Shown: positions 1,213 to 18,609, numbered from the stretch's first letter. The stretch is DNA of 41,972 nucleotides from Acutalibacteraceae bacterium (GCA_045661005.1 JAZREW010000017.1:1-41972); one strand, 5' to 3'. Numbers and translations are program-made. Notes: a model not told the origin generated them from the letters alone.

Positions 1213-2124
1213 ATGATGAAAAAGATAGATTTTTCATACACTTGGAGTCAAATGAAAAAGAAAAAAGCCGGTTATGCATTTGTGGCTCCCTTTATGATTT
1301 TGTTTATTATTTTTACAGTAATTCCTGTAGCAATATCAATTTTTTACAGCTTCACATATTATAATGCGTTAGAAGCTCCACGTTTTATCGGACTTGATAA
1401 TTATATGAGATTATTTCTTAAGGACGATGTTTTTATTATTGCAATTAAAAACACTTTGGTTTTTGCGGTAATTACAGGTCCTGTAAGCTATATTATGTGT
1501 TTACTGTTTGCTTGGTTTATTAACGAGCTAAGCCGACCTCTGAGAGTTTTATTCACAATAATTTTCTACGTACCCTCTATTTCGGGCCAGGCTTATACAA
1601 TATTCTCTATAATTTTTAATAGTGACCGTTATGGTCTTATGAACGGACTTTTAATTAAATTGGGCTTTTTAACCGAACCTATAGCATGGTTTCAGGATAC
1701 ACGTTATATGATGGCAATTATTATAGTGGTATCCTTGTGGATGTCGCTGGGTACCAGCTTTTTGTCCTTTATAGCGGGTCTTCAGAGTGTGGACCGTTCT
1801 TTATATGAAGCCGCCGCTGTTGACGGTATTAAAACCCGTTGGCACGAGCTTTGGTATGTAACATTACCCGCTATGAAGCCACAGCTTATGTTTGGTGCGG
1901 TAATGGCTATCACATCTTCCTTTGCGGTAAGCGGTGTTTGCAATACATTGGCAGGCTTCCCGTCTACCGATTATGCGGCGCATACTATCGTGGCTCATTT
2001 GCAGGATTACGGTCAGATAAGATTTGATATGGGCTATGCTTGTGCAATCGCAACATTACTTTTTATTATGATGGTTGGCGCTAACAAGCTGGTTAATATA
2101 TTGCTAAGAAGGGTGGGCGAATAA
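1213..2124 (+). CDS. Carbohydrate ABC transporter permease (MalF/UgpA-like)
   Basis: RBS AAGGGGG lies upstream. There are about 6 hydrophobic segments. The EAA-loop motif YEAAAVDGIKTRWHELWYVTLPAMKP is present. Confidence 0.9.
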   Translation: MMKKIDFSYTWSQMKKKKAGYAFVAPFMILFIIFTVIPVAISIFYSFTYYNALEAPRFIGLDNYMRLFLKDDVFIIAIKNTLVFAVITGPVSYIMCLLFAWFINELSRPLRVLFTIIFYVPSISGQAYTIFSIIFNSDRYGLMNGLLIKLGFLTEPIAWFQDTRYMMAIIIVVSLWMSLGTSFLSFIAGLQSVDRSLYEAAAVDGIKTRWHELWYVTLPAMKPQLMFGAVMAITSSFAVSGVCNTLAGFPSTDYAAHTIVAHLQDYGQIRFDMGYACAIATLLFIMMVGANKLVNILLRRVGE

Positions 2125-2125: not shown

Positions 2126-2998
2126 ATGAAAATTAAATCCCATTCTTCAATAGCCAGAAAAAGAATATCACGTTCGGTTGGCGGAGATATAGCAATTTAT
2201 GGTTTTTTAATTATTATGGCTATTTTTCTTATGTTTCCGCTTGTGTACATAATAAGTAACTCGTTAAAGCCGTATAACGAATTGTTCATTTTCCCGCCAA
2301 AGCTATTTGTAACTAACCCAACGGCAGATAATTACCTTGATTTATTTACCGTAATGTCTTCTTCTTGGGTGCCGTTTTCAAGATATTTGTTAAACACATC
2401 TTTTATAACGGTTGTAGGTACATTAGGTAATCTTATTTTTGGTTCAATGGCGGCTTTTGCTATTTCAAAAATAAAGTTTCCGGGTTGTAATTTTTGTTTT
2501 AAGCTTATAGTTTTATCACTTATGTTTTCAACCTTAGTTACAGAAATACCCAACTATTTAATAATTTCAAAATTCGGTTGGATAGATACTCATCTGGCAG
2601 TTATAGTGCCTGCCTTTGCTTCAAGCCTTGGCATATATCTTATGAAACAGTTTATAGACCAGATTCCCGATACATTAATAGAGGCGGCGCAAATAGACGG
2701 TGCAAATTCTATGAGGGTTTTCTGTTCAATTATACTGCCATCGGTAAAGCCGGCGTGGCTTACTGTAATTATTCTTTCGGTTCAGTCTCTTTGGAATAGC
2801 ACAGGCGGTAAATTTATTTACAGCGAACAGCTCAAAACCTTACCTGTTGCTATGAATGATATAGCCGCAGGCGGTATTGCACGTTCGGGCGTTGCAGCCG
2901 CAATTTCTGTAGTTATGCTTAGTGTTCCTGTAATCACATTTATTTTGGCACAAAGTCAGGTTGTAGAAACAATGGCTACATCCGGTATGAAGGAATAG
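2126..2998 (+). CDS. Carbohydrate ABC transporter permease (MalG/UgpE-like)
   Basis: It starts 1 nt after the previous stop. The EAA-loop motif IEAAQIDGANSMRVFCSIILPSVKPA is present, and the protein is multi-TM. Confidence 0.9.
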   Translation: MKIKSHSSIARKRISRSVGGDIAIYGFLIIMAIFLMFPLVYIISNSLKPYNELFIFPPKLFVTNPTADNYLDLFTVMSSSWVPFSRYLLNTSFITVVGTLGNLIFGSMAAFAISKIKFPGCNFCFKLIVLSLMFSTLVTEIPNYLIISKFGWIDTHLAVIVPAFASSLGIYLMKQFIDQIPDTLIEAAQIDGANSMRVFCSIILPSVKPAWLTVIILSVQSLWNSTGGKFIYSEQLKTLPVAMNDIAAGGIARSGVAAAISVVMLSVPVITFILAQSQVVETMATSGMKE

Positions 2999-3009: not shown

Positions 3010-5100
3010 ATGAAAAAGATACTTGTATTTTTATTGATTTTAGTATTAAGCTTTTCTTTTATTTTCCCCGCAAGTGCTAAAAGCTACAGTTCTTATAATT
3101 ATAACTCTAAGGGCGAGGCTATAAAATCACCTCATCCGTACACACCTGTAAAGGAAATAAGCGGAATTGATATTGGTGTAGGCGAGTTTTCAAACCCTTC
3201 GGATATTTATCGTGATTATAACGGCAATATATATATTTGCGATAGCGGTAATAACCGAATTGTAGTGCTTAACAGCGATTTTACCTTTAAACAGGAAATC
3301 ACCGAGATTACTGTTGGTTATTTTACAGAAAAGCTCAATAACCCAAGCGGTGTGTTTGTGGACCCCAATACTAACCTGCTTTATATTGCTGATACCGATA
3401 ACGCAAGAGTTCTGGCTTTGGACGAAACACTTACAACAGTTATACGTGTTGACAGACCGTATCAAAAAGGCGTTGTAGACGATGACTTTATATTTGCGCC
3501 CACTAAGGTAGCGGTTGATAACGGCGGAAGAATATTCGTTGTATCAAAAAATACCTATGAGGGTCTTATGCAGTTTGATTCTAAGGGTGAATTTTTAGGC
3601 TTTGTGGGTGCAAACAAGGTTTCTATTTCACCTATAGAATATTTTTGGAAACGGCTTTCAACAAAGGCGCAATCATCAAAGCTACAGCTTACCTTACCTA
3701 CGGAATTTTCTAACCTTGAAATAGATTCTGACGGATTTATTTACACCACCACAAGCATAATAAGCGAAGACGGTGCTGATATTCTTATAAGAAGACAAAA
3801 TCCATCCGGTGAGGATGTGCTTAAAAAGAGCGAATTTTTATCGATTGCGGGTGATATTGATTATTCGACAGATACCACAAGCACTTCTAAAATAGGTCCT
3901 TCAAGCTTTGTGGATGTTGCGGTTGGCGACCACGGCATATATAGCGCACTTGATACCAAGCGAGGCAGGATTTTCACCTATGATTTCGAGGGTAATCTTT
4001 TATACGTTTTCGGCGGTGACGGAAACAACGGTAACGATTTAGGATGCTTTTTTACCCCAATTGCTATGATTAAAAGCGGTGAAGATTTTGCTGTTCTTGA
4101 TATGTATAAAGCTACAGTAACAATTTTCGCCCCCACAGAATACGGCAAGCTTATAAATGAAGCGGTAGCTTGCAATTATAATGGCGATTATGATGATTCT
4201 GCAAAGATATGGGAAAAGGTAATACGTCTTAATTGCAATTACGAACAAGCGTATACAGGTATGGGTATTTCTCAGTTGCGTTCGGGCAACTACAAAGAAG
4301 CAATGAAAAACTTCAAGCTTGGTGCTAACAAATACTACTATTCAAAAGCCTTTAAAGAGTATAGGCAAGGCTGGTTAGAATCTAACTTTATATGGGTGGT
4401 TTTAATTGTTGTTACCGCCCTTGTGCTACTGTGCGTAGGAATAACATATTCAGAAAAACGCAGAATAGCCGGCAAGCATACGGTTTTAGATAGCAGTATT
4501 AAATATGTTTTTTATTCGGTTTCGCATCCGTTTGACGGATTTTTTGAAATGAAACGCAGAAAAATGGGTAGCCTTAAAATTTCTGCAGTAATTCTGGCTT
4601 TATTAATATTATGCTTTGTTATTAAAAATCAAATGACAGGGTTCCTTATTAATAATACCGATTTATCTGATTTTAATATTTTCAATGAAATAGTAAAGGT
4701 TTTAGGGCCGTTTTTGCTTTTCTGTATTATAAACTGGTGCGTAACAACCCTTATGGACGGTGAGGGCAGGCTTGTAGAAATTATAAACTGTGTTGCTACT
4801 TGTCTTATACCTTTAATAATTTCTATTATTCCGTTAACAATTCTAAGTAATATTATAACAATGGAAGAAAAAGCATTTTATTATGTTTTGTTATCCTTAG
4901 TTATTGCATATTCGCTATTCTTAGCGTTGGTAGGAATAATGGAAACCCACCAATATTCTTTTGGTAAAACATTGCTTTCAATAATTATAACTATTATTGG
5001 AATGGTTATTACAATATTTATAATTTTGCTTTTTGTAAATCTTATAAACACATTGTTCGATTTTTGTGTAAAGATTTATAATGAGGTTGTATTAAGGTAG
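3010..5100 (+). CDS. Secreted NHL-repeat beta-propeller / TPR-like / C-terminal Yip1-type polytopic membrane domain fusion protein
   Basis: Signal peptide MKKILVFLLILVLSFSFIFPASA. NHL-type repeats are present (NPSDIYRDYNGNIYICDSGNNRIVVLN; NNPSGVFVDPNTNLLYIADTDNARVLALD; RIFVVSKNTYEGLMQFD). A TPR-like stretch follows (YEQAYTGMGISQLRSGNYKEAMKNF). The C-terminus has about 5 TM helices after PFDGFFEMKRRK, as in Yip1-domain proteins. Confidence 0.7.
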   Translation: MKKILVFLLILVLSFSFIFPASAKSYSSYNYNSKGEAIKSPHPYTPVKEISGIDIGVGEFSNPSDIYRDYNGNIYICDSGNNRIVVLNSDFTFKQEITEITVGYFTEKLNNPSGVFVDPNTNLLYIADTDNARVLALDETLTTVIRVDRPYQKGVVDDDFIFAPTKVAVDNGGRIFVVSKNTYEGLMQFDSKGEFLGFVGANKVSISPIEYFWKRLSTKAQSSKLQLTLPTEFSNLEIDSDGFIYTTTSIISEDGADILIRRQNPSGEDVLKKSEFLSIAGDIDYSTDTTSTSKIGPSSFVDVAVGDHGIYSALDTKRGRIFTYDFEGNLLYVFGGDGNNGNDLGCFFTPIAMIKSGEDFAVLDMYKATVTIFAPTEYGKLINEAVACNYNGDYDDSAKIWEKVIRLNCNYEQAYTGMGISQLRSGNYKEAMKNFKLGANKYYYSKAFKEYRQGWLESNFIWVVLIVVTALVLLCVGITYSEKRRIAGKHTVLDSSIKYVFYSVSHPFDGFFEMKRRKMGSLKISAVILALLILCFVIKNQMTGFLINNTDLSDFNIFNEIVKVLGPFLLFCIINWCVTTLMDGEGRLVEIINCVATCLIPLIISIIPLTILSNIITMEEKAFYYVLLSLVIAYSLFLALVGIMETHQYSFGKTLLSIIITIIGMVITIFIILLFVNLINTLFDFCVKIYNEVVLR

Positions 5101-5112
5101 GAGGAGAAGATT

Positions 5113-7689
5113 ATGAAGATTAAATGCAAAAAAATCGCAAGTTTTCTCCTTTCTGCGATGTTGATTTTTTCTACAGCTTCGGTAAGCTTTAAAAGCTATG
5201 CCGAAAAAATTGAAGACGTAAAAATATCAGCCGATTACAGTTATAGCGAAGCTGAAAATATAGCTATAGCTAATGGCTTTGCCCCTGTTTTAAACAATCA
5301 GAATTTCACTTTATACTATAAAGCCGAAACATCTGAAATGGCGGTTTACAACCGCAATAATAATGAGGTTTTATATTCTAATCCGCAGGATATACCCGAG
5401 GATGTGACGGGTCTGGCTTCGCATAGATTGAAATCTCAGCTTTACGTTACATACTATGTAAATAATACGCAGGCTAAATATTTTTCATCTTATTATGACT
5501 GTGTTAATTTTAACCAAAACACAGCCGAAATTAAGGACAATACACTTGTTGTTGAATATGTATTCGGTAAGGAAAGCTATTCAAAGGAAATGTTGCCTAT
5601 AGCTATTCCAAAGGATAAATATGAAGAAAAGATTTTGCCAAAGCTTACAGATGCGGACAAGGAAATACTTGAAAACGCATATAAGCTTACCTCTATTAAA
5701 TCTGCAAAGACTGATGTGGCACGCAACAAGCTTATAGAAAGATACAAGAACATAGAAAAAACCGACCTTTATGTGCTTGACAGATATATACCCGATTACG
5801 AGGTAGAGGCGGTTTATAAATCACTTTTCAAGTATTACACCACAGAAGATTTTAAAGAGGATAACGGAGCGGCAGGCGGCACTACTGAGGTGGCGAATGA
5901 TTCTATAACCTTTACGCTTTCGCTTTGTTACAGTTTAAGAGAAAACGGGTTAACCGTTTCGCTGGATTGCTCACAGTTAACGGTTAGCGAAAACGCAGAT
6001 ATAGATTCTGTAGCAATTTTAGAATTTTTTGGTTGCGGCGGAAAAGCGGATTCGGGTTATTCCGTTATTCCTGACGGCAGCGGCGGTGTGATTAATTTTA
6101 ACACCAATAAGCCTTGGGCTAGCGAATATTCTGCCAGAATTTATGGTGACGACGGTGCAATAAGCTACACTAATTCTGTTGAAAACAAGAAAAGTGTGCA
6201 GCTGCCTATGTATGCCATAGCAAAAAACGAAAGCGGAATAATTGCGGTTGCAAGTAAGGGTGCCGGCATATGCAGTATTATTTCTGATATTGCCGATGAT
6301 ATAATACCCTATAATAAAACTGCTTTTTGTGCAAATGTATTCAGCTTTGATAAAATGTATGTTTTAAATCCTGAATATGGCGGCGGTATGTCTGAGGTTT
6401 ATGTGCGTGAGGCTGAGCCGTATTCAGAAAATATTGAAATTAATTATTTCTTTTTAGAAAAGAATAAAAACACATATGCAAATATTGCCGAGTATTACCG
6501 AAATATGCTAATAAAAAATGGCACACTATCGCAAAAGGTCAACGGTGAAACTCCCTTTGTTTTTGAATTGGTTGGTGCGGTTGATGTAAATAAGCATTTT
6601 TTGGGTATTCCTTATAAAGGATATGAGGTTTTAACATCCTTTGAGCAGGCAGAAGAAATAATAGAAGCTTTTTCAGAACAGAAAATTTCCCGAATGAAGG
6701 TAAAGCTTTCAGGTTGGTTTAACGGCGGTTTGCAACAAACCGATATTTCAAAAGTCAACATTTTGTCCTGCTTGGGCGGTAAGAGAAAGCTTACAAAACT
6801 TATGGAAAGCAAAAAGGCAGATGTTTTTCCGCAAATAAACGTTTCAACGGTAAGCAATAAAGCGTTTGACGGTTTTTCTATTAAAAACGAAGCGGCAAGG
6901 CTTACTTACAACGAAACAGCGCTTTTGTATCCGATTAGTCTTTCACGTGGCGATTTTGATTACGAAGAAAAATATAATTATATTTTATCGCCCGCAAAGT
7001 ATTCGGCAAAGGTAAAAAGCTTTAATAAAAAATTCAATTATAAAAATATTGCGTTATCGGATTTAACAACCACGCTAAACAGCGATTTTTCTGCGGATAA
7101 TTATACCAGCAGAATCAAGGCAGAAAATATAACCAAAGATACTTTAACTAAGCTTAAAAAGGGAAGAAGTATATTGGCGTCGGCACCTAATGAGTATGCA
7201 GTAGAGTTTGTAGATGTTGTAACCGATATGCCGCTTGGTACATCGGGCGCTAACATATTTGATTTAGAAATACCGTTTGTTCAGATGGTGTTTAGCGGAT
7301 ACAAGGATATGGCTTGCGAACCGATAAACATTTATGACAACGGGGCTGATTTATTAAAGCTTATGGCTTACGGTACGTTGCCTAATTACACCTTTATGTA
7401 TGCAGAGTCCTCGGCGCTTAAGGATACAGATTATTCAAATTACTATTCCTTGTGCTTTAAGGATTGGCAAGAAGAAGCAATGGAGCTTTACAAAGATTAT
7501 TGTAAGGATATGCAGGCGGTTAGAGGCTGCAGTATAACAGGCTGGGAAATGATTACCGCAAACGTAATAAAAATCAGCTATGAAAACGGTGCCGTTTTTG
7601 TTATTAATCAAGGCGATAATATTTATGAAGACGGTGCGGTTAAGGTAGAAGGTCAAAGTTATAGCTTTTATAAGGGGGGATTGCAATGA
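5113..7689 (+). CDS. Large secreted protein of unknown function (possibly the DUF5696 type that accompanies Yip1 proteins and sugar ABC permeases in Firmicutes)
   Basis: Strong RBS (AGGAGGAG) and signal peptide (MKIKCKKIASFLLSAMLIFSTASVSFKSYA). I see no motif I can tie to a named enzyme family. The DUF5696 suggestion rests only on size and on remembered gene neighbourhood. Confidence 0.45.
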   Translation: MKIKCKKIASFLLSAMLIFSTASVSFKSYAEKIEDVKISADYSYSEAENIAIANGFAPVLNNQNFTLYYKAETSEMAVYNRNNNEVLYSNPQDIPEDVTGLASHRLKSQLYVTYYVNNTQAKYFSSYYDCVNFNQNTAEIKDNTLVVEYVFGKESYSKEMLPIAIPKDKYEEKILPKLTDADKEILENAYKLTSIKSAKTDVARNKLIERYKNIEKTDLYVLDRYIPDYEVEAVYKSLFKYYTTEDFKEDNGAAGGTTEVANDSITFTLSLCYSLRENGLTVSLDCSQLTVSENADIDSVAILEFFGCGGKADSGYSVIPDGSGGVINFNTNKPWASEYSARIYGDDGAISYTNSVENKKSVQLPMYAIAKNESGIIAVASKGAGICSIISDIADDIIPYNKTAFCANVFSFDKMYVLNPEYGGGMSEVYVREAEPYSENIEINYFFLEKNKNTYANIAEYYRNMLIKNGTLSQKVNGETPFVFELVGAVDVNKHFLGIPYKGYEVLTSFEQAEEIIEAFSEQKISRMKVKLSGWFNGGLQQTDISKVNILSCLGGKRKLTKLMESKKADVFPQINVSTVSNKAFDGFSIKNEAARLTYNETALLYPISLSRGDFDYEEKYNYILSPAKYSAKVKSFNKKFNYKNIALSDLTTTLNSDFSADNYTSRIKAENITKDTLTKLKKGRSILASAPNEYAVEFVDVVTDMPLGTSGANIFDLEIPFVQMVFSGYKDMACEPINIYDNGADLLKLMAYGTLPNYTFMYAESSALKDTDYSNYYSLCFKDWQEEAMELYKDYCKDMQAVRGCSITGWEMITANVIKISYENGAVFVINQGDNIYEDGAVKVEGQSYSFYKGGLQ

Positions 7690-8630
7690 AGAAAAAATTT
7701 ATGTCAGGCTATTTTAACGGAAAAAGCTTGACTTTAAAGGGCAGAAAAGCACGCACAGGCTTGATTTTTGCTTCGCCCTTGATTTTTGGTTTTATATTTT
7801 TATTTGCAATACCGCTTTTTAATTCGTTTATGTTTTCGGTAGGCGAAATAAACCTTAACCCTAACGGCTACGAATTTAAGTTTTCGGGCTTTGGCAATTA
7901 TAAGTATATTTTCTTTGAGCATACAACCTTTTTAAGAAGCTTTTTAACCACTATTAAAGATGTTGTTTTAGATACACCGCTTATACTGGTTTTCAGCTTT
8001 TTTATTGCTGTTTTACTCAATCAAAAGTTTAAGGGCAGAATGTGGGTAAGAGCACTATTCTTCTTGCCTGTAATAATAAGCTCGGGCGTAATAATGCGTT
8101 TAGATAATCAGGCGTATGTAGAGTCGCACATTTTTCATTCGGGATCTGAAACAGGTACTGTTATGAGTAATATGATGGGCGGTATAAATCTTTCGGATTA
8201 TTTAATAAAGCTAGGTCTTGCAGAGGGTCTCATTGAATATTTAAGCACAGCATTAGAAAGTGTTTACGATATAATTAATTGTTCGGGTGTACAAATACTT
8301 ATTTTGCTTTCGGCACTTCAAACAATACCCGAGTCTTTGTATGAAGCTTCAAGTATAGAGGGTGCAACCGCTTGGGAAAACTTTTGGAAAATAACCTTTC
8401 CAATGCTTTCACCGTTTATTTTGGTTACCTGTGTTTATACAATAATAGATAGCTTCCTTATGGTAGGGTCGGATACATATAATATGACACGGCTCATAGA
8501 AACTACCGTTAATGAAAAGTTGGATTTTGCCGTAGCTTCGGCTATGTCATGGGTTTATTTTATTGCAGTAGGTTTGATTTTAGGTATAGTTTCCTTTATC
8601 ATATCTCGCTATATATCTTATACAGAATAG
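7686..8630 (+). CDS. Carbohydrate ABC transporter permease (MalF-like), second pair
   Basis: ATGA start/stop overlap with the upstream gene. EAA loop YEASSIEGATAWENFWKITFPMLSP. Multi-TM. Confidence 0.88.
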   Translation: MKKKFMSGYFNGKSLTLKGRKARTGLIFASPLIFGFIFLFAIPLFNSFMFSVGEINLNPNGYEFKFSGFGNYKYIFFEHTTFLRSFLTTIKDVVLDTPLILVFSFFIAVLLNQKFKGRMWVRALFFLPVIISSGVIMRLDNQAYVESHIFHSGSETGTVMSNMMGGINLSDYLIKLGLAEGLIEYLSTALESVYDIINCSGVQILILLSALQTIPESLYEASSIEGATAWENFWKITFPMLSPFILVTCVYTIIDSFLMVGSDTYNMTRLIETTVNEKLDFAVASAMSWVYFIAVGLILGIVSFIISRYISYTE

Positions 8631-8640: not shown

Positions 8641-9591
8641 ATGAAAAATACAAATACTTATCTTTTAAAAAGAAAATCACGTGAAACTGCAATAGCACTA
8701 TTAAGAACTATTTTCTTTATTGGTATAGGCTTCTATATTATTTATCCAATTTTCACTAAAGCTATGATGAGCTTTATGTCTGAGCAGGATTTGTACGATG
8801 CTACAGTTTCGCTTGTGCCAAAGGAATGGACAACGGAAAATTTAAAGCTGGTTTTCAAGGCTATCGAATTTCCTGTGGCATTTAAGAATTCCTTAATACT
8901 GTCACTAACCGTTATGGTTTTGCAGTTAGTATCATCATTGCTTGTAGGTTACGCCTTTGGCAGATTTGAATTTCCGTTTAAAAATTTGTTGTTTATATTA
9001 GGAATATTTATGTTGGTTGTACCGCCATCTACAATGATTTTACCGTTGTATCTTTCGTATTCTAATTTTGATATTTTAGGTATTTTCAAGCTGATTACCG
9101 GTGGAAAACTTAATTTGCTTAATACATATTTCCCGTTTATACTGTCTTCGTTGTTCTGTACCGGAACAAAGGGCATGATGTTTGTATTTATGTTCAGGCA
9201 GTATTTCAGAAATATGCCAAAAGAAATTGAAGAAGCGGCTTGCGTTGACGGTGCCGGTGAATTCAGAATTTTCATACAGGTTATGGCTCCGTCATCACGC
9301 CCGATTGCTGTTTGTGTAGCCTTGCTTTCTTTTGTTTGGCAATGGACAGATATTTTATACACAGGCTGGTATATGAGCGGCTATAAGCTGCTTTCGGTTA
9401 ATTTATATGCGCTTACTGAAAATGTAAAGGTATATATAGCTACTGGCGGTTCGGTAGTAATAGGACCTGCTTATCAGGCGTTGCTTAACGGCATAGGTTC
9501 TATTCTTGTTATATTGCCGTTGCTTGTAATGTACCTTTTCTTGCAGAAAAACTTTATTCAAAGCGTTGAACGTAGCGGAATAGTGGGTTAA
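8641..9591 (+). CDS. Carbohydrate ABC transporter permease (MalG-like), second pair
   Basis: EAA loop IEEAACVDGAGEFRIFIQVMAPSSRP. Multi-TM. RBS AGGAG. Confidence 0.88.
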   Translation: MKNTNTYLLKRKSRETAIALLRTIFFIGIGFYIIYPIFTKAMMSFMSEQDLYDATVSLVPKEWTTENLKLVFKAIEFPVAFKNSLILSLTVMVLQLVSSLLVGYAFGRFEFPFKNLLFILGIFMLVVPPSTMILPLYLSYSNFDILGIFKLITGGKLNLLNTYFPFILSSLFCTGTKGMMFVFMFRQYFRNMPKEIEEAACVDGAGEFRIFIQVMAPSSRPIAVCVALLSFVWQWTDILYTGWYMSGYKLLSVNLYALTENVKVYIATGGSVVIGPAYQALLNGIGSILVILPLLVMYLFLQKNFIQSVERSGIVG

Positions 9592-10603: not shown

Positions 10604-11596
10604 ATGAGTTGTGAATTAATACCTTATGCTATATGTACTAATAAGGATGCCGAAACCTTTCACTATATGCTGAAGCATCCGCACTATAACTTCTTTATGC
10701 TTGATATGTACAAGGGCGGAAATTCTGATTTGCCGATAGAAGAAGATTCGGTTTGTGAGGATATTAAGCTTTGCCGAGAATACGGTAAGGTAGCAACCCT
10801 TTCTGTGGGCAGATATATCTTCGAAAAAAATGATGCACCGTATCACGCACCTTTAAAGGAAAATTGGCAGGAAATAATGGATAGAATAGACGCTCTTATG
10901 TCTGAGCTTGGCGGAGATGCCTTTATAGGCTACAGCTTTGACGAACCGTTTTATTATATGACGGGTGACGAGTATCTTGAAATGACAAAGTATATTTCAA
11001 AATACGGCAGAAGGATTTTTGCCATTCACGCAAGCGTTCATATTCACATGGCGTTGTGGCCTGTTAATGAATCACACGATTTCAAGTCTACCGCATTTCG
11101 TAATATGAGCCACATCACACCCGAAAATCACGCTTATACCACTGATGTAAGCTATGATTATTATGGAGAATGGGAGCATGGTGTACATCATAATACAGTA
11201 TACCGTTTGTTTATTGAAAGAATGGGTGACCGTTTTGAAAAAACAAAGTTCTGGTTTACACCGCCCGTGGGTACTGTAATGCGTTCTTGGGTGGATATTC
11301 CAAGTGAGGAATGCGAACAAATCTGTATAGATATATTTATGGGAATGTGGAACTGGGCAAAAAGTGTTCAAAATTTCGGTGGTTTTATAATCTATACATT
11401 TTTGGATTATATTTGCAGAGACGGTAGCAGTCATGGTAATGCAAAAACATATCTTATACCCGATGAAAACGGCAACGTTAAGTGGGAGAAAATGTACAGT
11501 ATTTTAAACGCTGTAGGCGAAGGCTTTATTGCGGGTAAGCATCCAAGTGAGATTGAACTGCCCGAGGTAGAGTACGATAAAGGCTATATTGTTTAA
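10604..11596 (+). CDS. Cytoplasmic protein, tandem paralog 2 of the unassigned ~300-aa domain
   Basis: No signal peptide. The central ~150 aa are nearly identical to paralog 1, and the last 20 aa (GKHPSEIELPEVEYDKGYIV) are identical. The N-terminal ~90 aa are diverged. Confidence 0.8.
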   Translation: MSCELIPYAICTNKDAETFHYMLKHPHYNFFMLDMYKGGNSDLPIEEDSVCEDIKLCREYGKVATLSVGRYIFEKNDAPYHAPLKENWQEIMDRIDALMSELGGDAFIGYSFDEPFYYMTGDEYLEMTKYISKYGRRIFAIHASVHIHMALWPVNESHDFKSTAFRNMSHITPENHAYTTDVSYDYYGEWEHGVHHNTVYRLFIERMGDRFEKTKFWFTPPVGTVMRSWVDIPSEECEQICIDIFMGMWNWAKSVQNFGGFIIYTFLDYICRDGSSHGNAKTYLIPDENGNVKWEKMYSILNAVGEGFIAGKHPSEIELPEVEYDKGYIV

Positions 11597-11746: not shown

Positions 11747-14700
11747 ATGAAAAAAATTCTAGCACTTATTTTAACCTTGGCACTTACTCTTTCTATGGTG
11801 TGTGCAGGCTTTGTTGCCGAAGCAACCGTAGAGCCTACAAACTCGGAATATTATTGGGAGCCTGTTGATGCAATCGGTTACGATGAAGCCCAGATTGACA
11901 TCAGAGGTACTAATGCCGATGTAGCCTTAACTGCAGAGGAAAAAGAAGCTTCTAAGCCTCGCCTTGTAACCGGCGGTGTTAACGGCTCTAATGCTATGCA
12001 GGTTGGCGGTAGTTACACTTATAGCAGATATTTAATGCATTTCCGTATTAATGGTCTTAAGTTAGATACTACTTATGTTATTGAGATGGATGTTAAAAAG
12101 GTATCGGGCGCTATAAGAACCATGCAGGCGGGTGTATGGCGTGCAGGCGCATACAACTATTCTACAACAACTTATGCAGATGCCGATATTTCTTCTGATG
12201 CTTTCACAACACTAACATTTGAAAGCTCACTTTCGGGAAGTTATATTCCGCATTACCTTATTGTTAACTTCAATACAACAAGCGCGGGTGCGGTATTGCT
12301 TATAGACAACATTGTTGTTTACGAAAAAGAAGACAGCTCTAAAACAAATCTTTACGACACATCCTTAGCAGTAGAAACAGGCTCTGAAAATCCCGGTACT
12401 TTTGATAAGGAATATAAGCTTTGGTTTGATAACGAGGCAGAAGAAAACCTTTGCTATTTCCCTGTGGATAGCATTCCTTACAGAACCAGCGGTACAGCAA
12501 ACGTAGTACCTGTACTTTCAAATATGGGTGAGGGTGTTAAGGGAAGTTATGCTATGAAGCTTGAAACAGCAGCTTCAAAGCAGTCTACTTTATATATGCA
12601 ACCGGCGGCCACATCTACATACTCAGCGTCAACTGAATATGTAATTGAAATGAAAATAAAGAAATCAGCCGGTTCGATTGCGTCAAGCAATCTTTTAATT
12701 GGTATGAATGAAAACAACGCTTGGAACTGGTCAAAAACCATTACTGATGCTGAGCTTTCAAGCGAATACACCTATTTCAAATGGTCACATACTACAAGCG
12801 CTACTACCGGTTGGAGACACTTCTGCTTTAGATATACTGCAGGCAGTTCGGGTGCTACACTTTTGATAGACGAAATAAAGATCTACAAAGCAAGCGATGC
12901 TAACAAAACACCTATCGTTTTCCAAAATGGACTTGAGGCTGACTGTGACTTTGATTTAGACGATACATATTACGGAATACCAACTGATGATACTGCAGAT
13001 ACCGGCATCGATTATTCTCCTGCTGCTTCTGTAGGCGATAAGGTGAGCGGTTCTAACGCTTCTGACTATCCGGCTGATATTGCACCGGCTATTGTTGCCG
13101 GCGGTGTTAAAGGCTCTTATGCTATGAAAATAGGCGGAGCTACCCAAACTGCCATTAGCAATTATACAGTAACCTTTGCAGGTCAGAAATTTGTTGCAGA
13201 TACAGATTATACTATTGAAGTTGATATTAAGAAGCTTTCAGGCACAGTTGGTACTCTTTCTATGGGATTAACCACATCTACAGGAACGCTTGTACTTGAT
13301 GATGAAAGACTTTGCGATAGCTTTACAACATATAAATGGAATATAAAGACTAAGAGCACAATTAACGCATCTACTTGGATGTATTTACAATTCATATTAA
13401 ACACCGATGTTGGCGGTGCAGAATTGTTAATTGATAATATAAAGGTTTATGCAAGCGAAGAAATTGAAAAGCCTAATTTTGCAACATCAAATAACGGTGT
13501 GTACACATTCGATGTCAGCTCACAAATGCTTCCTGTATACAAGGAAAATGCTGCTGAAAATGAGTATCCGTTATTTAAATTCAGTTCTAATAACGCTTAC
13601 CCTGTAAACGGTGCAGAAACAAGCAATGTAGCAGAGCTTGTTTGTCTTGAAAATGCAGATAGCGGTAGCTATGCAATGGCTATTGGCGCTGCTAATGATG
13701 ACCCTACCAAGGCTACTGTAAGATTTGGTCTTAGAGAGTTAGACTTTGGCAAAACCTATAAGGTTAAATTCTCGGCATTTATAGTTAATTCATTTAATTT
13801 GTTTAACGCATCTATTACAGCTACTAACGGCGGCAGCGATGTTTATGAAATTCAGATTTCTAAGAATACTGCTGAAAAGGATATACCAAGAAGCTGGCAG
13901 GAATTTGAATTTACATACACAAATACCTCTACCTTGCAAGACTACGTTTCTCACGCTTACTTGATATTTAGTTTTGAAGATAATAACGGTGCCGGCGCAG
14001 TATTTGTTGATTCTATAAGCGTTTGCGAAATAGATGAGTCCGGCGCAGAGGTAGGTCCTAACATCTTTATAAATGGCGATTTTGAGTATTTCACAGAAGA
14101 AGAGCCTGACTGGACTAATAGTGAATTCTGGTCAAATGACAGCGCTACAGACTTCTCATTTATGCAGAATATTGAGAAGGAGCTTGGCGGTTTAGGTACT
14201 GGCATAGTAAATGATAGCGAGCTTTTCTCACAGCTTATTACAAGCGATACCTACGAAGCATTCGATTCTTATATTGTTGCAAGCGAAAAATTTGCAGTTG
14301 CAGAATACGAGGCAATTGCGTTGGCCGAGGCTGGTAAAAAGGTATGGTTATGTGTAAATCAGCTTATTGATAACAATAAGACATTAGCAACCGATTGGCA
14401 GGCTAAGCTTATAAGATACGCTACTATGATGCAGAATGTATGCGGTGATAATTTCCAAGGCTTCTATTTCGATGAGCCTGCTTATTACTGCACATCTGAT
14501 GAGTTTACACAGGTAACTAAATTCTGTCGTGAGTATTTCAGAAAGCGTGTATTTGCTATTCATTTCAATGCAACATTTACAAATGAAGAAACTACAGAAG
14601 AAATCAAGTTTATAGCTGATGCGGCTAACCACGCATATGTTACAGATGTTGGTTACTGGCGTTATGGCAGCTGGGATGCAGGTAGCGATGCTACAATGGA

Positions 14701-15514
14701 TACTTGGAATGATTTTGTTTCAACATTAAATGAAAATACAAGAATTTGGGTAACTCCTCTTCTTGGAAGACATGATTATTTGCAGACCGAAGATGATATT
14801 GTAGGAATTATTAACGGTATGCTTAGCGGATGTAAGGATTTAGATAATTTCGGTGGCGTTATGTTCTACTCTATGTCTTACCAACCCGCAACAATAGAAT
14901 TAGATGACGAAAAATATAATCAGGCTGTAAATGAAGGTGCTGTTAAGACTGAGGTTTATACAGTTATCGATGCTAGCGGTGAAGTTCTTTATAACCGCTA
15001 TTTCAGAGGCGGCGGTGCTTATTTGATTAATCCTGAAAGTGAAGAATATATGCCTAATGTAGCGGCTTTAGTTAATCAGATTGCTAAAGAGTTTAAGGCA
15101 GACACCGCTTTCCGTTTGAATAACAAATGCGGCACATACGATATAGTAAATAATGTTATCTATGTAACAGCAGATAATGTTACTGTTTCAGATATAATAA
15201 ACGCTTCAGGTTTGGCAGATATTGCAAATACCTTTGTTTCTGCAGGTGAGCCAATTTCAGCAGATATGGTTATAGGTACAGATTACACTTTAACCTCTGA
15301 ATTTATAACCTGTAATTTCAGTTACTCAATTGCAGTAAAGAATGATGCTAACGGCGACGGATTAGTAAACATTATAGATTTAGTACGTGCTGTAAAGCTT
15401 GCTAAATTTGTTGTAGAAGGTACCGACGCACAGTATGTGGCATTGAATTCTTCTAACGGCGAAGTATCTGCTGAGGCATTAACAATTCTTAAGAGAATTA
15501 TATTCAACAGCTAA
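11747..15514 (+). CDS. Secreted multimodular protein: four CBM-like beta-sandwich modules + unassigned ~300-aa domain + dockerin-like C-terminus
   Basis: RBS GGGAGG. Signal peptide MKKILALILTLALTLSMVCAGFVAEA. The modular layout is detailed in the three sub-features that follow. Confidence 0.85.
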   Translation: MKKILALILTLALTLSMVCAGFVAEATVEPTNSEYYWEPVDAIGYDEAQIDIRGTNADVALTAEEKEASKPRLVTGGVNGSNAMQVGGSYTYSRYLMHFRINGLKLDTTYVIEMDVKKVSGAIRTMQAGVWRAGAYNYSTTTYADADISSDAFTTLTFESSLSGSYIPHYLIVNFNTTSAGAVLLIDNIVVYEKEDSSKTNLYDTSLAVETGSENPGTFDKEYKLWFDNEAEENLCYFPVDSIPYRTSGTANVVPVLSNMGEGVKGSYAMKLETAASKQSTLYMQPAATSTYSASTEYVIEMKIKKSAGSIASSNLLIGMNENNAWNWSKTITDAELSSEYTYFKWSHTTSATTGWRHFCFRYTAGSSGATLLIDEIKIYKASDANKTPIVFQNGLEADCDFDLDDTYYGIPTDDTADTGIDYSPAASVGDKVSGSNASDYPADIAPAIVAGGVKGSYAMKIGGATQTAISNYTVTFAGQKFVADTDYTIEVDIKKLSGTVGTLSMGLTTSTGTLVLDDERLCDSFTTYKWNIKTKSTINASTWMYLQFILNTDVGGAELLIDNIKVYASEEIEKPNFATSNNGVYTFDVSSQMLPVYKENAAENEYPLFKFSSNNAYPVNGAETSNVAELVCLENADSGSYAMAIGAANDDPTKATVRFGLRELDFGKTYKVKFSAFIVNSFNLFNASITATNGGSDVYEIQISKNTAEKDIPRSWQEFEFTYTNTSTLQDYVSHAYLIFSFEDNNGAGAVFVDSISVCEIDESGAEVGPNIFINGDFEYFTEEEPDWTNSEFWSNDSATDFSFMQNIEKELGGLGTGIVNDSELFSQLITSDTYEAFDSYIVASEKFAVAEYEAIALAEAGKKVWLCVNQLIDNNKTLATDWQAKLIRYATMMQNVCGDNFQGFYFDEPAYYCTSDEFTQVTKFCREYFRKRVFAIHFNATFTNEETTEEIKFIADAANHAYVTDVGYWRYGSWDAGSDATMDTWNDFVSTLNENTRIWVTPLLGRHDYLQTEDDIVGIINGMLSGCKDLDNFGGVMFYSMSYQPATIELDDEKYNQAVNEGAVKTEVYTVIDASGEVLYNRYFRGGGAYLINPESEEYMPNVAALVNQIAKEFKADTAFRLNNKCGTYDIVNNVIYVTADNVTVSDIINASGLADIANTFVSAGEPISADMVIGTDYTLTSEFITCNFSYSIAVKNDANGDGLVNIIDLVRAVKLAKFVVEGTDAQYVALNSSNGEVSAEALTILKRIIFNS
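11825..14095 (+). other. Four CBM_4_9-like carbohydrate-binding-type modules within the 11747-15514 protein
   Basis: A recurrent pattern appears four times. It runs G(G/E)GV(K/N)GSYAM.(I/L/V)G, then (T/D)(E/T)Y.IE(M/V)(K/D)(I/V)KK, then W..(F/Y).(W/F), then LLID(N/E)I(K/V)(V/I)Y, then (F/I).NG..(A/F)(D/E). Module 2 is clearly homologous to the repeats in 15595-18609. Confidence 0.6.
14153..15060 (+). other. Extracellular copy of the unassigned domain (paralog 3)
   Basis: Motifs in order: FSFMQNIEKE, KVWLCVNQLI, DWQAKL, FQGFYFDEPAYYCTSDEF, TKF, AIHFNAT, NHAYVTDVGYWRYGSW, RIWVTPLLG, NFGGVMFYSMSY, GGGAYLINPESEEY. They are colinear with the other three copies. Confidence 0.75.
15338..15511 (+). 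other. Dockerin-like module (one canonical Ca2+-binding loop, second loop degenerate)
   Basis: KNDANGDGLVNIIDLVRAVKL matches the dockerin/EF-hand loop D.N.DG.(V/I)N..D(L/A). The second segment LNSSNGEVSAEALTILKRIIF keeps the helix but has weakened loop residues. Confidence 0.6.
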
Positions 15515-15594: not shown

Positions 15595-18500
15595 ATGACC
15601 AATAAAAAACGGGATATTCTTAAGCTCATATCAACAATTCTGGTTGTATGTATAGTGGTTGTAAGCACTTCGGTTATCTGGGTTTCAGGCTTGACCAACT
15701 ATACTGTAGAGCCGGTGGATAATACCGTTAATCCCGATATAGAATTCACGCCTATAAGCAGCATACCCTGTAGAACAAATAATGCGGCTATGCTTTCGGC
15801 GCCCGTTCTTACAGAGCTTGGCGAGGGCGTGTGCGGTTCTTATGCTATGCAAATAGGAACCATGTCAACCAAAACAAATACTGTGTATTTTCAGCCTTCG
15901 GGTACATCGATTATTGAAAAGAATACCGAGTATGTAATTGAAATGAAAATACGTAAAAAGCAGGGCGAATTCGATTCACTCAAAATAGGTTTTTTCGGAT
16001 ACAATACCACAGGTGCAAATTATTCGTTTGAAGTTGAAAATGATGCGGTTTCGAGCGAATGGCAATGTTACAGATGGAACCATAGAACCACCACAAGCAG
16101 TGGTTGGAAATTTTTAGAAATTACATATACTGCGGCAAACGGCGTGGTTTTATTGTTTGATGATATAAAGGTATATAAAGCTAATGATGCGCAAAAAACT
16201 CCGTTGGCGTTTCAAAATGGTTTAGCGGCTGACGCTACCTTTGATACATCGGTATCACATGCGAAAAATTACGAGGTTTTAGATTTTAATAACAAAACTG
16301 ATCCAAACGTAGAATTTACACCTATAAGCAGTATACCCTGCAGAACAAACAATGCGGCCATGCTTTCGGCACCCGTTCTTACCGAGCTTGGCGAGGGTGT
16401 GCGTGGTTCTTACGCTATGCAGATAGGTACTATGTCAACCAAAACAAATACCGTGTATTTTCAGGCTTCGGGTACAACCGCTATTGAAAAGAATACCGAG
16501 TATGTAATTGAAATGAAAATACGTAAAAAGCAGGGTGATTTCAATTCACTTAAAATAGGCTTTTTCGGGTATAACACAACAGGTGCAAATTATTCGTTTG
16601 TAGTAGGTGATGACGAGGTTTCAAGCGAATGGCAATACTACAGATGGAGGCATACCACAACCTCAAGCAATGGTTGGAAATTCTTAGAAATCACATATGC
16701 TGCAACCAATGGTGTTGTATTGTTGTTTGATGATATAAAGGTTTATAAATCTAATGATGAACAGAAAACACCTATAGCATTTCAGAACGGTTTAGCGGCT
16801 GACGCTACCTTTGATACTTCTGTAATTTATGAAAAAAATTATGAGATTATTGAGTTTGATGACTCTGTAATAGAAAATGTAGAATACAAAGCATTGGATT
16901 TTATTCCGCACAGAGAAAGCAACGAACTTATGAACTCTGCACCGGTAATATCTGAGGCGGGCGAGGGTGTGCGTGGCTCTTATGCTATGCAGATAGGCGC
17001 TATGGATGTTACAACTAACTCTGTAAGATTTCAGGCGGCAGCGAGAACTGCAATTGCGCCTGATACTGAGTATGTAATTGAAATGAAGATAAGGAAAAAG
17101 TCAGGTAATATTAAAACCCTTAGTGTAGGATTTTATGAAAACGGCATAGGCTCTGAAAATGCGTTTACAATTCCAAATGCAGTTCTTCTGAACGAATGGC
17201 AATGCTTTAGATGGAAGCATACCACCAATGCAGACAGCGGAAACTGGAAATTCTTTGAAATATCTTATTTTGCGCCAGAGGGTGTAATAATTCAGGTGGA
17301 TGATATTAAAATTTACCGTGCTGACGACCCGGATAAGAGCTTAATTCCTTTCCAAAGTGGTATGGATGCGGAAATGGTTTTTGAAACTAAAAGAATACCT
17401 TTTACTGCAAAAGCAGTAGAAAGCAAAGCAGATACCACAACTAAATATGTTCCGGTTAATTTTTACGATTGGGAAAACGTAACTCAATCCAGCGTTGCAG
17501 ATAAGTTCCCGTCAGGCTACATATTTAAAAACGATGCAAGAAATGCCGTGCGTCCACGTCTTTCACAATTTGGCGAAGGCTTTAACGGAACCTACGCTAT
17601 GGTTATAGGCGGTAAGGATGTAAAGGTTACAGACGAATATCAGGTGCGTTTTTCATTTCCGGCATCTAATGTGCTTGCCGCTAACACAGAGTATACCTTT
17701 AAGGTTAAGCTTAAAAAAGTGCAGGGTGCGGTAGATAGCTTTAAAATCGGTTTCATTGAATCGGGAAGCACCGCACATTATTCGCTGGATATTTTAAATT
17801 CTGAACTGTCAACTGAGTGGACAGAGTACACCTGGAAATACACAACCGATGAAAGTTGTGCGGGAGCTACTGTATGGAATTATATTGCAATATCCTATGT
17901 TGCAACATCAGATGAGGGCGCAACCGTACTTGTTGATGATTTGGTTGTTTACCCAACTGAGTATGATGAAAGCCGCAAGATTTTTGGTATGGGTGCTTTT
18001 GAATATAAGGATTTGGGACAGGAAAAGGTTACCTTTACGGATAATAATCCTACCGATTGTGAACCTGCGTTCAGAAAGAGTACCGCCAGTGATAAAAACG
18101 GTGGCTTACAGCCACGTGTAGTGGAATGTGATGCCCACACAGGTAAATACGCATTGGCGCTAGGCTTTAGTGAAACGGCTTCGGATTCGGTGTATACAGT
18201 TTCGCTATTACCAACAAAACCCGGCGGCAGTTATCGCATAAGCTTTTGGGTTAAGGTGCAAGGCGAGGTAGACGGTGCATATATCGGATTTATGGATAGC
18301 TTCCAAAAATATAAATTCTATGGCGGCAATTACGTGTTTAATCAATATGAATGCGGTAAATGGACCAAGGTAGAATTTGTATATACCGATACAGCAACCA
18401 TTTCAACAGCAAAGGGCTATAGATATTTTATGGCAAAGCTTGTTGCCCCCGCAGGTTCAGGAATTTTAATAGATGACGTAAGCATTAAAGACGTTTCTTT

Positions 18501-18609
18501 AGGCGACAAAGCGGCTAATCTTATTGAATTTGGCGGATTTGAGAAAGAGCTAAAGCCATTACCGGCAGTTGTCTGGGATGACAGATATATTTACAAGGAG
18601 GAGAATTAA
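15595..18609 (+). CDS. N-terminally membrane-anchored surface protein made of five CBM-like modules and no recognisable catalytic domain (candidate glycan-binding protein)
   Basis: RBS AAGGAG. A single N-terminal TM segment (ILKLISTILVVCIVVVSTSVIWV) is followed by five ~190-aa modules of the same type as in 11747-15514. Confidence 0.8.
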   Translation: MTNKKRDILKLISTILVVCIVVVSTSVIWVSGLTNYTVEPVDNTVNPDIEFTPISSIPCRTNNAAMLSAPVLTELGEGVCGSYAMQIGTMSTKTNTVYFQPSGTSIIEKNTEYVIEMKIRKKQGEFDSLKIGFFGYNTTGANYSFEVENDAVSSEWQCYRWNHRTTTSSGWKFLEITYTAANGVVLLFDDIKVYKANDAQKTPLAFQNGLAADATFDTSVSHAKNYEVLDFNNKTDPNVEFTPISSIPCRTNNAAMLSAPVLTELGEGVRGSYAMQIGTMSTKTNTVYFQASGTTAIEKNTEYVIEMKIRKKQGDFNSLKIGFFGYNTTGANYSFVVGDDEVSSEWQYYRWRHTTTSSNGWKFLEITYAATNGVVLLFDDIKVYKSNDEQKTPIAFQNGLAADATFDTSVIYEKNYEIIEFDDSVIENVEYKALDFIPHRESNELMNSAPVISEAGEGVRGSYAMQIGAMDVTTNSVRFQAAARTAIAPDTEYVIEMKIRKKSGNIKTLSVGFYENGIGSENAFTIPNAVLLNEWQCFRWKHTTNADSGNWKFFEISYFAPEGVIIQVDDIKIYRADDPDKSLIPFQSGMDAEMVFETKRIPFTAKAVESKADTTTKYVPVNFYDWENVTQSSVADKFPSGYIFKNDARNAVRPRLSQFGEGFNGTYAMVIGGKDVKVTDEYQVRFSFPASNVLAANTEYTFKVKLKKVQGAVDSFKIGFIESGSTAHYSLDILNSELSTEWTEYTWKYTTDESCAGATVWNYIAISYVATSDEGATVLVDDLVVYPTEYDESRKIFGMGAFEYKDLGQEKVTFTDNNPTDCEPAFRKSTASDKNGGLQPRVVECDAHTGKYALALGFSETASDSVYTVSLLPTKPGGSYRISFWVKVQGEVDGAYIGFMDSFQKYKFYGGNYVFNQYECGKWTKVEFVYTDTATISTAKGYRYFMAKLVAPAGSGILIDDVSIKDVSLGDKAANLIEFGGFEKELKPLPAVVWDDRYIYKEEN
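15730..17439 (+). repeat. Three in-frame tandem 570-nt (190-aa) repeat units
   Basis: The GAATT(C/T)AC / GAATACAA landmarks at 15742, 16312 and 16882 are spaced exactly 570 nt apart. Units 1 and 2 are roughly 90% identical at DNA level by eye, with long identical runs such as GAATACCGAGTATGTAATTGAAATGAAAATACGTAAAAAGCAGGG. Unit 3 is more diverged. Confidence 0.9.

Follow-up and report, generated by a model that had tools for sequence, protein, structure and literature searches.

A conserved cassette placing an NHL-TPR-Yip1 membrane protein and a GH129-like DUF5696 protein between two pairs of ABC permeases

The locus and its conserved cassette

The stretch of Acutalibacteraceae bacterium DNA considered here (GCA_045661005.1, JAZREW010000017.1:1-41972), termed the window and taken at its whole length of 41,972 nucleotides (nt), opens with 11.6 kb of densely packed genes on the plus strand, whose junctions from position 1202 to position 11596 are all 18 nt or shorter. 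Central to it are two adjacent genes, which lie where a first-pass annotation of the sequence had put them (Table 1) and which encode, respectively, a 696-residue membrane protein that combines an NHL β-propeller, a TPR-like segment and a Yip1 domain (the NHL-TPR-Yip1 protein) and an 858-residue exported protein of the family DUF5696. On either side of these genes lies a pair of permeases of the ATP-binding cassette (ABC) type, termed here permA1 and permB1 (upstream) and permA2 and permB2 (downstream); matches to the Pfam model BPD_transp_1 on both sides bear out the earlier statement that the two genes are wedged between two such pairs. A large solute-binding protein (SBP) precedes the first pair. 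The best explanation of this arrangement is that the two genes lie at the centre of a conserved cassette for glycan uptake, with seven or eight genes in two linked sub-modules; and it is very likely that the two surface proteins they encode are working parts of a widespread uptake machine.

The DUF5696 and permA2 genes are translationally coupled. At an ATGA (7686-7689), which had been read correctly at first pass, the ATG of permA2 (7686-7688) overlaps the TGA of the DUF5696 gene (7687-7689), and a GGGGGA ribosome-binding site precedes that ATG. The EAA loop, at which the ATPase docks, is retained by all four permeases, which make up two BPD_transp_1 pairs; because every loop is kept, each pair should dock an ATPase dimer. 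Counts of internal promoters and terminators were not above those of shuffled controls, which is neutral on whether the genes form a single operon.

The large SBP matches SBP_bac_8 (E 1e-22) as well as SBP_bac_1 in Pfam and is thus a family-1 SBP. Its full-length orthologues (780-1119 residues) begin with an N-terminal signal or transmembrane (TM) anchor--usually a TM helix rather than a lipobox--and consist of an N-terminal half of about 500 residues that weakly resembles carbohydrate-binding modules (CBMs), followed by a sugar-binding domain of the CUT1 type. In the orthologue from one of the closest relatives (locus L003), SBP_bac_1 is matched at residues 543-824, and upstream of it there are only sub-threshold matches to Golvesin_C, CBM6 and CBM35. 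When an orthologue is compared with sugar SBPs in the PDB, 5ci5 (E 1e-15) and 5ysb (E 4e-13) are matched.

Conservation of the cassette was assessed by scanning one genome per species for DUF5696 motifs, which yielded 46 loci, and by translating all open reading frames (ORFs) of these and searching them with the window proteins. The related loci, 53 altogether, were reached from DUF5696, from the NHL-Yip1 protein or, in two cases, as copies of a deletion variant; the majority come from metagenome-assembled genomes (MAGs). The conserved order is large SBP, permA1, permB1, NHL/TPR with Yip1 (fused or separate), DUF5696, permA2 and permB2, and almost every locus with sufficient flanking DNA shows it; all seven parts occur in this order in 39 of the 53 loci. 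Incomplete loci mostly run into the end of a contig; the exceptions are the deletion variant (L050 and L051), a locus without an intact DUF5696 ORF (L042) and a partial locus (L053). In each of the 46 DUF5696-derived loci with enough flanking sequence, DUF5696 comes straight after a Yip1 gene and straight before a permease pair, and in all complete loci the Yip1 gene or domain lies between the two permease pairs. Conversely, loci found via the NHL-Yip1 protein have an adjoining DUF5696 gene in four of four cases, including Paenibacillus rhizovicinus and Bacillus sp. FJAT-28004, which have the same cassette, and Natronospora. Because the arrangement recurs in loci that were picked only for encoding a DUF5696 relative, it goes beyond chance. 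Co-occurrence with permeases is thus near-universal, and the first-pass proposal of a conserved but unexplained module tied to sugar ABC permeases and recurring in Clostridia and Paenibacillus is upheld.

Hosts are labelled as Acutalibacteraceae, Lachnospiraceae, Oscillospiraceae, Defluviitaleaceae, Caldicoprobacter, Mobilitalea, Paenibacillus, Bacillus, Izemoplasmatales and Treponema. Two further labels are doubtful. The scaffold labelled Alistipes senegalensis (L048) has a guanine-cytosine (GC) content of 35-37%, far below that of this species; and in the locus labelled Bacteroidaceae (L032) the protein lengths and the fused NHL-Yip1 gene are as in a Ruminococcus MAG (L033). Taken together, the cassettes and flanks of these two loci span 35-38% GC. 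Both labels may be binning or labelling errors, and Bacteroidota were not counted as a secure host.

Permease orthology follows position: orthologues of permA1 score 300-600 bits against it and 20-50 bits against permA2. Because orthology is position-specific in this way, the two pairs must be old and non-interchangeable. In none of 47 loci does the gap between DUF5696 and permA2 exceed 26 nt, and the two genes overlap in 26 of them. In Natronospora (L054) the cassette is permuted, such that the block consisting of NHL-Yip1, DUF5696, permA2 and permB2 precedes the block consisting of the large SBP, permA1 and permB1, and in L053 only the former block is present. On account of these two loci, the Yip1/DUF5696 pair is assigned to the second permease pair, and the tightest unit is NHL-Yip1, DUF5696, permA2 and permB2. 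Median identities between the window and 48 distant loci are 57% for permA1, 52% for permB1, 44% for the TPR segment, 41% for the SBP domain, 38% for both permA2 and permB2, 37% for NHL, 34% for Yip1 and 27% for DUF5696. The slower divergence of the NHL-TPR-Yip1 parts (33-44%) as compared with DUF5696 (27%) would fit a generic scaffold with a more substrate-facing partner.

What surrounds the cassette varies. Flanking carbohydrate-active enzymes (CAZymes) include a xylan set of glycoside hydrolase (GH) families (GH10, GH67, GH43 and GH3), GH38 with GH130, GH5, a fucosidase and a pectate lyase, and adjoining regulators are of the AraC type, of the LacI or GntR type, histidine kinase/response regulator pairs, or none. 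The deletion variant, from a related metagenomic strain, contains an ORF, P0065 (L050, 6481-8703; L051, 2935-5157), in which NHL and His_kinase domains occur together; pairwise alignments reveal it to be an in-frame join of residues 1-552 of the Yip1 protein to residues 402-590 of the downstream histidine kinase, with DUF5696, permA2, permB2 and everything between deleted and with the same junction in two assemblies. P0065 was therefore rejected as a natural NHL-kinase fusion that would prove a sensor role. In L050 the first half of the cassette is present once more, as a truncated copy.

Architecture of the two surface proteins

From its N-terminus, the NHL-TPR-Yip1 protein consists of a signal helix, a propeller, TPR-like hairpins, a single TM helix, a basic linker and the Yip1 domain (Table 1). 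Pfam recognizes the propeller as NHL (PF01436: E 3e-12, 46.2 bits versus a cut-off of 20) and the C-terminal region as Yip1 (PF04893: E 1e-14, 55.2 bits versus 28.6; residues 503-669, profile positions 3-171 of 173). The propeller's sequence matches in the PDB are likewise NHL proteins (Pizza6, TRIM71 and PknD, with E down to 2e-16), and in the AlphaFold2 model of the protein (48 homologues; predicted local distance difference test score, pLDDT, 83.5) it resembles, by Foldseek, the six-bladed NHL domains of TRIM71, TRIM2 and Brat (target TM-scores 0.75-0.79). The TPR segment scores below the Pfam cut-offs (TPR_1, 20.8 bits versus 27.8; TPR_2, 20.0 versus 27); it does match consensus-TPR chains in the PDB (E 6e-5), and several homologues carry recorded TPR families. 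The Yip1 domain has five hydrophobic segments (residues 520-676), and five long helices (residues 522-695) in the model. Of the membrane architecture described at first pass, the NHL and five-helix Yip1 parts are thus confirmed, with a probable TPR-like segment between them; the membrane part, however, comprises one plus five helices, rather than five only.

This protein is widespread: more than 1586 homologues are found at E ≤ 1e-8, and relatives in Paenibacillus, Cohnella and Bacillus are about 40% identical over their full length. NHL-TPR and Yip1 are encoded by one gene in 13 loci and by two adjacent genes in 35 of 48, where the separate Yip1 protein has about 220 residues, where the gene boundary falls after the single TM helix, and where the two genes overlap in 30 of the 35 loci. 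Two conserved features stand out. One is a helical insert in the propeller at residues ~205-235 (3622-3714), with the sequence pattern FWKRxSTKxQ...LPTEFSN and a pLDDT of 53-68; within it W213, Q221 and P230 are invariant in relatives down to about 37% identity, including those from Paenibacillus, and it is a candidate protein-protein interface. The other is an invariant motif in the Yip1 region at residues 575-584 (N575, W576, T579, L581 and G584), at the predicted cytoplasmic end of a helix.

The DUF5696-type identity of the 858-residue protein, named at first pass, proves correct: the match to PF18952 reaches 508 bits versus a cut-off of 25.6 and extends over residues 245-850 and profile positions 2-612 of 612. 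The family is large, comprising 6672 clusters at 50% identity (E ≤ 1e-3). No profile library assigns the protein to a glycoside hydrolase family; that is, it has no match in NCBIfam, and in Pfam at E ≤ 0.01 DUF5696 is the only model that matches, with no glycoside hydrolase model among the matches. In the AlphaFold2 model (31 homologues; pLDDT 87; predicted TM-score, pTM, 0.85) the N-terminal signal peptide is followed by an extra N-terminal domain (residues ~45-245), a β-sandwich (~267-450), a (β/α)8-like barrel (~482-780) and a C-terminal β-sandwich. Foldseek ranks GH129 enzymes best, namely ZgGH129 (5opq; E 1.9e-26, target TM-score 0.69) and NagBb (5wzn; E 7e-23, target TM-score 0.72), then GH101 (~1e-13) and then GH31, GH36 and GH97. 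Elsewhere in the family the protein is tethered, either as a lipoprotein (Lachnospiraceae, Treponema) or by a TM anchor (Defluviitaleaceae, Izemoplasmatales and some Bacilli).

At the sequence level this relation emerges with profiles only. A single-sequence search of the PDB does not find GH129, whereas the DUF5696 family profile matches the PDB sequence of ZgGH129 (E 3.6e-4) along three collinear stretches. A homologue search with an 89-residue fragment of ZgGH129 gave no matches; a metagenome scan with the same fragment, however, gave 25 GH129 loci, from which 17 full-length GH129 proteins were aligned. When these 17 sequences are compared with 195 diverse DUF5696 sequences using hhalign, the probability of relationship is 98.9% (local mode; E 4e-17) or 99.8% (global mode), and about a dozen invariant positions are common to both groups, including P320, G324, P365, A459, Y462, W535, R667 and P721-F722 (numbered as in the window protein). 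Based on the Foldseek, profile and hhalign matches together with these shared invariant positions, it is established that DUF5696 is a remote homologue of GH129 and GH101. The first-pass view of the protein as one without a nameable motif is thereby refined, as a distant relative with a known fold can now be named. True membership of GH129 was rejected, because there is no direct profile match and the acid/base residue is not conserved.

Table 1. Features of the cassette in the window, and parts of the NHL-TPR-Yip1 protein (positions in nt unless marked aa, amino acid residues)
Feature	Position	Strand	Evidence or remark
Large SBP, C-terminal 392 aa	24-1202	+	5' end cut at window edge; SBP_bac_1 E 3e-23
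permA1, MalF/UgpA-type, first pair	1213-2124	+	BPD_transp_1 E 2e-13; UgpA-like (NCBIfam); EAA loop aa 199
permB1, MalG/UgpE-type, first pair	2126-2998	+	BPD_transp_1 E 4e-10; UgpE-like; EAA loop aa 186
NHL-TPR-Yip1 membrane protein, 696 aa	3010-5100	+	Pfam, PDB matches, AlphaFold2, Foldseek
Signal helix of NHL-TPR-Yip1	aa 2-18	+	AlphaFold2 model
Six-bladed NHL β-propeller, extracytoplasmic	3094-4134 (aa 29-375)	+	Pfam NHL; PDB; AlphaFold2; Foldseek
Two TPR-like hairpins (four helices)	4138-4320 (aa 377-437)	+	Sub-threshold TPR; PDB; AlphaFold2
Single TM helix	4387-4443 (aa 460-478)	+	Hydropathy 3.11; inside long model helix aa 441-487
K/R-rich linker, predicted cytoplasmic	aa 481-519	+	Follows single TM helix
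Yip1 domain, five TM helices	4567-5094 (aa 520-695)	+	Pfam Yip1; hydrophobic segments; AlphaFold2
DUF5696 protein, 858 aa	5113-7689	+	PF18952 E 3.8e-152; AlphaFold2; Foldseek; hhalign
permA2, divergent MalF-type, second pair	7686-8630	+	BPD_transp_1 E 3e-8, aa 200-308 only; EAA loop aa 220
permB2, MalG-type, second pair	8641-9591	+	BPD_transp_1 E 3e-9; EAA loop aa 197; position kept in all loci
Two cytoplasmic paralogues, 326 and 330 aa	9605-10585, 10604-11596	+	Same tight operon; outside conserved core

A model of the cassette and its alternatives

All components of the cassette are extracytoplasmic or membrane-located. Because the four-gene core is constant, because NHL-TPR and Yip1 occur both fused and split, and because of the coupling of the genes and this shared membrane location, the NHL-Yip1 and DUF5696 proteins are taken to work with permA2 and permB2; and gene order suggests that they may be physical parts of the transporter. 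The model favored here, to which we assign a probability of about 0.55, is that the Yip1 domain anchors the propeller and TPR segment to the second permease pair, with the GH129-like ectodomain positioned to process a glycan or to hand it over. Sub-module 1 is an ordinary CUT1-type importer, composed of the large SBP (with its CBM-like and sugar-binding halves), permA1 and permB1, and sub-module 2, the unusual part, is composed of the NHL-TPR-Yip1 protein, DUF5696, permA2 and permB2. Within the membrane, the five helices of Yip1 would dock against the permA2/permB2 dimer much as YknW does with YknYZ; Yip1-permease binding is proposed because YknW, the only bacterial Yip1 protein that has been studied, contacts an ABC transporter. 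The single TM helix would join Yip1 to the propeller and TPR segment, which would sit right outside the membrane, serve other proteins as a docking platform and position the exported DUF5696 ectodomain over the transporter. The GH129/GH101-type barrel of DUF5696 would bind an oligosaccharide, probably trim it, and pass the product to permA2/permB2, with ATP hydrolysis provided by a shared MsmX/MsmK-type ATPase encoded elsewhere. The complex itself, the direction of hand-over and the role of DUF5696 in cleaving or binding are what we infer here.

A number of observations weigh against this model. Pfam scans found no ABC_tran gene in the 42-kb window, and by a motif scan an ABC ATPase is absent from 47 of 48 loci, the sole case being on the opposite strand. 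CUT1 systems of Firmicutes commonly share an ATPase (MsmX/MsmK) that is encoded elsewhere, and because this is usual for them, the absence does not exclude function. A search turned up no protein data and no RNA run that contains the gene; the DNA runs, all of them gut or manure metagenomes, contain only 5-14% of the sampled words. The DUF5696 proteins of the window clade have a plain signal peptide, which may be cleaved, and their retention at the membrane is assumed. Moreover, the SBP domain is about 41% identical despite the varied flanking CAZymes, and no single substrate fits; deriving one substrate from the flanking genes was rejected, the contexts being too varied.

The remaining objections concern catalysis, which for DUF5696 is putative and unproven. 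The invariant D484 of GH129, presumably the nucleophile (as numbered in a fetched orthologue, and equated from a two-residue numbering offset alone with D486, the residue mutated in ZgGH129 D486N, 8rzk) aligns by hhalign to T654 of the window protein. The conserved D658 (92%) lies four residues past T654, in a three-residue insertion, and matches the GH129 aspartate only if the loop gap is shifted; it precedes the shared arginine (R667, R494 in GH129) by 9 residues, and D484 does so by 10. The invariant E518 of GH129, presumably the acid/base, aligns to S690, in a column that contains D or E in 70 of the 195 DUF5696 sequences (36%), and D717 (91%), which is the nearest well-conserved acid, aligns to a non-conserved serine in GH129. 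Each of D321, D347, D658 and D717 is retained by 91-94% of the family, the window protein included; about a quarter of the representatives, however, lack one of the four, some of them having D658N or D658S, and therefore hydrolysis cannot be the universal role of DUF5696. The window clade has also lost E381, E752 and H811 (replaced by S381, A752 and W811), which are conserved in 83%, 94% and 93% of the family, respectively, and the last of which aligns to an invariant histidine of GH129; the pocket of this subfamily may thus be altered.

These same objections lend some weight to a reading that is doubtful, but that has to be taken seriously, namely that DUF5696 is a GH129-like glycan receptor without catalytic activity, which takes the place of an SBP for permA2/permB2 by binding an oligosaccharide and docking on these permeases, and which is tethered by NHL-TPR-Yip1, with no cleavage involved. 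Not one acidic residue is invariant in the 195 sequences, where strict invariance is confined to Gly, Pro, Asn and Thr; there is no conservation at the position of the GH129 acid/base; and in about 8% of the representatives N, S or A takes the place of D658. Sub-module 2, moreover, is without an SBP of its own in both the window and L053, and only some 12 of about 33 loci have an ordinary SBP next to the cassette. The four aspartates, on the other hand, are better preserved than one would expect of a scaffold that only binds, the large SBP might be enough for both permease pairs, and no ABC importer is known to have a glycosidase-fold protein in the place of its SBP. Rather unlikely, in our estimate, is a bolder version that retains catalysis: sub-module 2 would be an ABC importer needing no free SBP, Yip1 would clamp a GH129-like ectoenzyme onto the permeases, sugar released by cleavage would drop into the translocation path, and the importer with the large SBP would take the remaining oligosaccharide. 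If true, this would amount to a monoderm counterpart of the utilisome of Bacteroidota, built of unrelated parts and coupling hydrolysis to import, and would make the bacterial Yip1 fold a general ABC-transporter adaptor.

It is improbable that the NHL-TPR-Yip1 and DUF5696 proteins instead constitute a regulatory or gating device that senses extracellular glycan and switches the transporters or a downstream two-component system. That an NHL propeller is the extracellular sensor domain of PknD (PDB match 1rwi), that genes for a YesM/YesN-type kinase and regulator lie downstream in the window, and that the K/R-rich linker and the invariant motif of the Yip1 region could contact cytoplasmic partners would all suit such a device; yet adjoining regulators vary from locus to locus while the four-gene core with its permeases is constant, the joining of NHL to a kinase in P0065 is a deletion chimera, and NHL-TPR-Yip1 has no recognizable output domain. 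Least probable is that both genes are ordinary polysaccharide-utilization cargo--a secreted glycosidase and an unrelated membrane protein--with no link to the transporter. Gram-positive glycan loci do routinely mix enzymes with transporters, and both the glycosidase fold of DUF5696 and the variability of the flanking CAZymes are what cargo would lead one to expect. True cargo, however, swaps between loci (the 326- and 330-residue paralogues, GH10, GH67 and GH38), whereas this pair keeps its slot between the permease pairs across 22-29% identity and several phyla, with genes that overlap or nearly abut in all loci, and in the permuted cassette it moves together with permA2 and permB2.

Neighbouring genes and comparison with known systems

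The two paralogues that close the 11.6 kb are 63% identical, lack a signal peptide, have no sequence match in Pfam, NCBIfam or the PDB, and are found behind the cassette only in L001 and L003, the closest relatives. In the C-terminal part of a secreted, CBM-rich protein of 1255 residues (11747-15514), residues 877-1041 form a domain that the paralogues have as well (29% identity, E 2e-19). A conserved stretch, FDEPxYY, resembles by eye the NEP acid/base motif of clan GH-A barrels, and the domain may belong to a glycosidase family without a name, present here in one secreted and two cytoplasmic proteins. At the C-terminus of the 1255-residue protein (residues 1200-1255; 15344-15511), DANGDGLVNIIDLVRAVK resembles by eye a dockerin calcium-binding loop; Pfam reports no dockerin in this protein at E ≤ 0.01. 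If true, the loop would imply cellulosome-like attachment. The next protein, of 1004 residues (15595-18609), has internal repeats of about 190 residues, two of which are almost identical in protein sequence and a third of which has diverged more, suggesting recent internal duplication, and has a CBM_4_9-like module near its C-terminus.

These large CBM-rich secreted proteins downstream of the core are followed by the YesM/YesN-type kinase and an AraC-type regulator and, further downstream (26137-30209), by a flavin adenine dinucleotide (FAD)-dependent oxidoreductase with a C-terminal galactose-binding-like domain and two xylose-isomerase-like TIM-barrel proteins. In two other loci genes for 3-keto-disaccharide hydrolases adjoin the cassette, which hints that the imported sugar takes an oxidative (3-keto) route. 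Toward its end the window contains a V-type ATPase operon (A, B, D, I and c) and then the TrkH/TrkA genes for potassium uptake and a 455-residue ORF (30631-39895 and 40577-41944); the ORF has no Pfam match, and the V-ATPase and Trk genes appear unrelated to the glycan locus. The nearest named relatives of the window are Acutalibacteraceae MAGs, and related DNA is present in gut, manure, bovine, pig and sheep metagenomes.

More broadly, the cassette spans Clostridia of gut and rumen, Paenibacillus from soil and Treponema from termite gut, where it lies near genes for xylan, mannosides and other glycans, and is likely to be a common monoderm route for the uptake of plant or host glycans. Despite the scale involved (more than 6600 DUF5696 clusters and more than 1500 NHL-Yip1 relatives), a full-text literature search found no paper naming DUF5696 or PF18952 and none that brings together a Yip1 domain, permeases and glycoside hydrolases. 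At the least, the cassette provides an easily recognized annotation marker for Gram-positive polysaccharide-utilization loci. If its two surface proteins are transporter subunits, accessory subunits would become part of the biology of type I ABC importers, a large DUF family would acquire a fold, a candidate active site and a role that can be tested, and there would be a second, independent link between the bacterial Yip1 fold and ABC transporters.

The first such link is the four-component YknWXYZ system of Bacillus subtilis and B. amyloliquefaciens, an ABC transporter whose activity depends on YknW, a member of the Yip1 family that is in contact with YknXYZ (PMC4887032). The statement at first pass that Yip1 has no defined bacterial function therefore needs qualifying by this one precedent, as an accessory subunit of an ABC exporter, beyond which a literature search on bacterial Yip1 proteins returned nothing relevant. 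The two systems are alike in that a polytopic PF04893 protein is encoded with ABC membrane subunits. They differ in that the Ykn system combines a MacB-type exporter and a membrane-fusion protein and confers protection from the SDP toxin, whereas the cassette has BPD_transp_1 importer permeases, SBPs, an NHL-TPR ectodomain on its Yip1 protein and a GH129-like protein. Pfam scans of the window ORFs revealed no YknX- or MacB-like gene, none for its ATPase and none for a membrane-fusion protein; a Ykn-type exporter was accordingly rejected, there being neither a MacB-type permease nor a membrane-fusion protein.

CUT1 importers of the MalEFG/MsmEFG type resemble the cassette in having an SBP_bac_1 protein and MalF/MalG-like permeases with EAA loops, in lacking an ATPase gene at the locus, and in the presence there of a YesM/YesN-type regulator pair and of CAZyme and CBM genes. 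The cassette departs from them in having two non-interchangeable permease pairs in one operon and an SBP about twice the normal size, which is often TM-anchored instead of lipidated; two extra conserved subunits together with a duplicated permease pair are known from no characterized CUT1 system. For the DUF5696 protein the relevant comparison is with GH129 (the 3,6-anhydro-D-galactosidase ZgGH129 and the α-N-acetylgalactosaminidase NagBb of Bifidobacterium bifidum) and with the endo-α-N-acetylgalactosaminidases of GH101, which share its multi-domain fold. Identity to GH129 is only 10-11%, DUF5696 has an extra N-terminal domain of about 200 residues, and a loop insertion has moved its candidate nucleophile; and GH129 enzymes stand alone, whereas DUF5696 is locked into a transporter operon. 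The likeness to the SusCD 'utilisome' of Bacteroidota is conceptual only: in both cases a glycan-capturing protein, an enzyme-fold protein and a transporter are encoded together and may work as a single assembly at the surface, but the proteins are unrelated, and the utilisome is located in the outer membrane and depends on TonB, whereas the cassette belongs to the cytoplasmic membrane of monoderm cells and to ATP.

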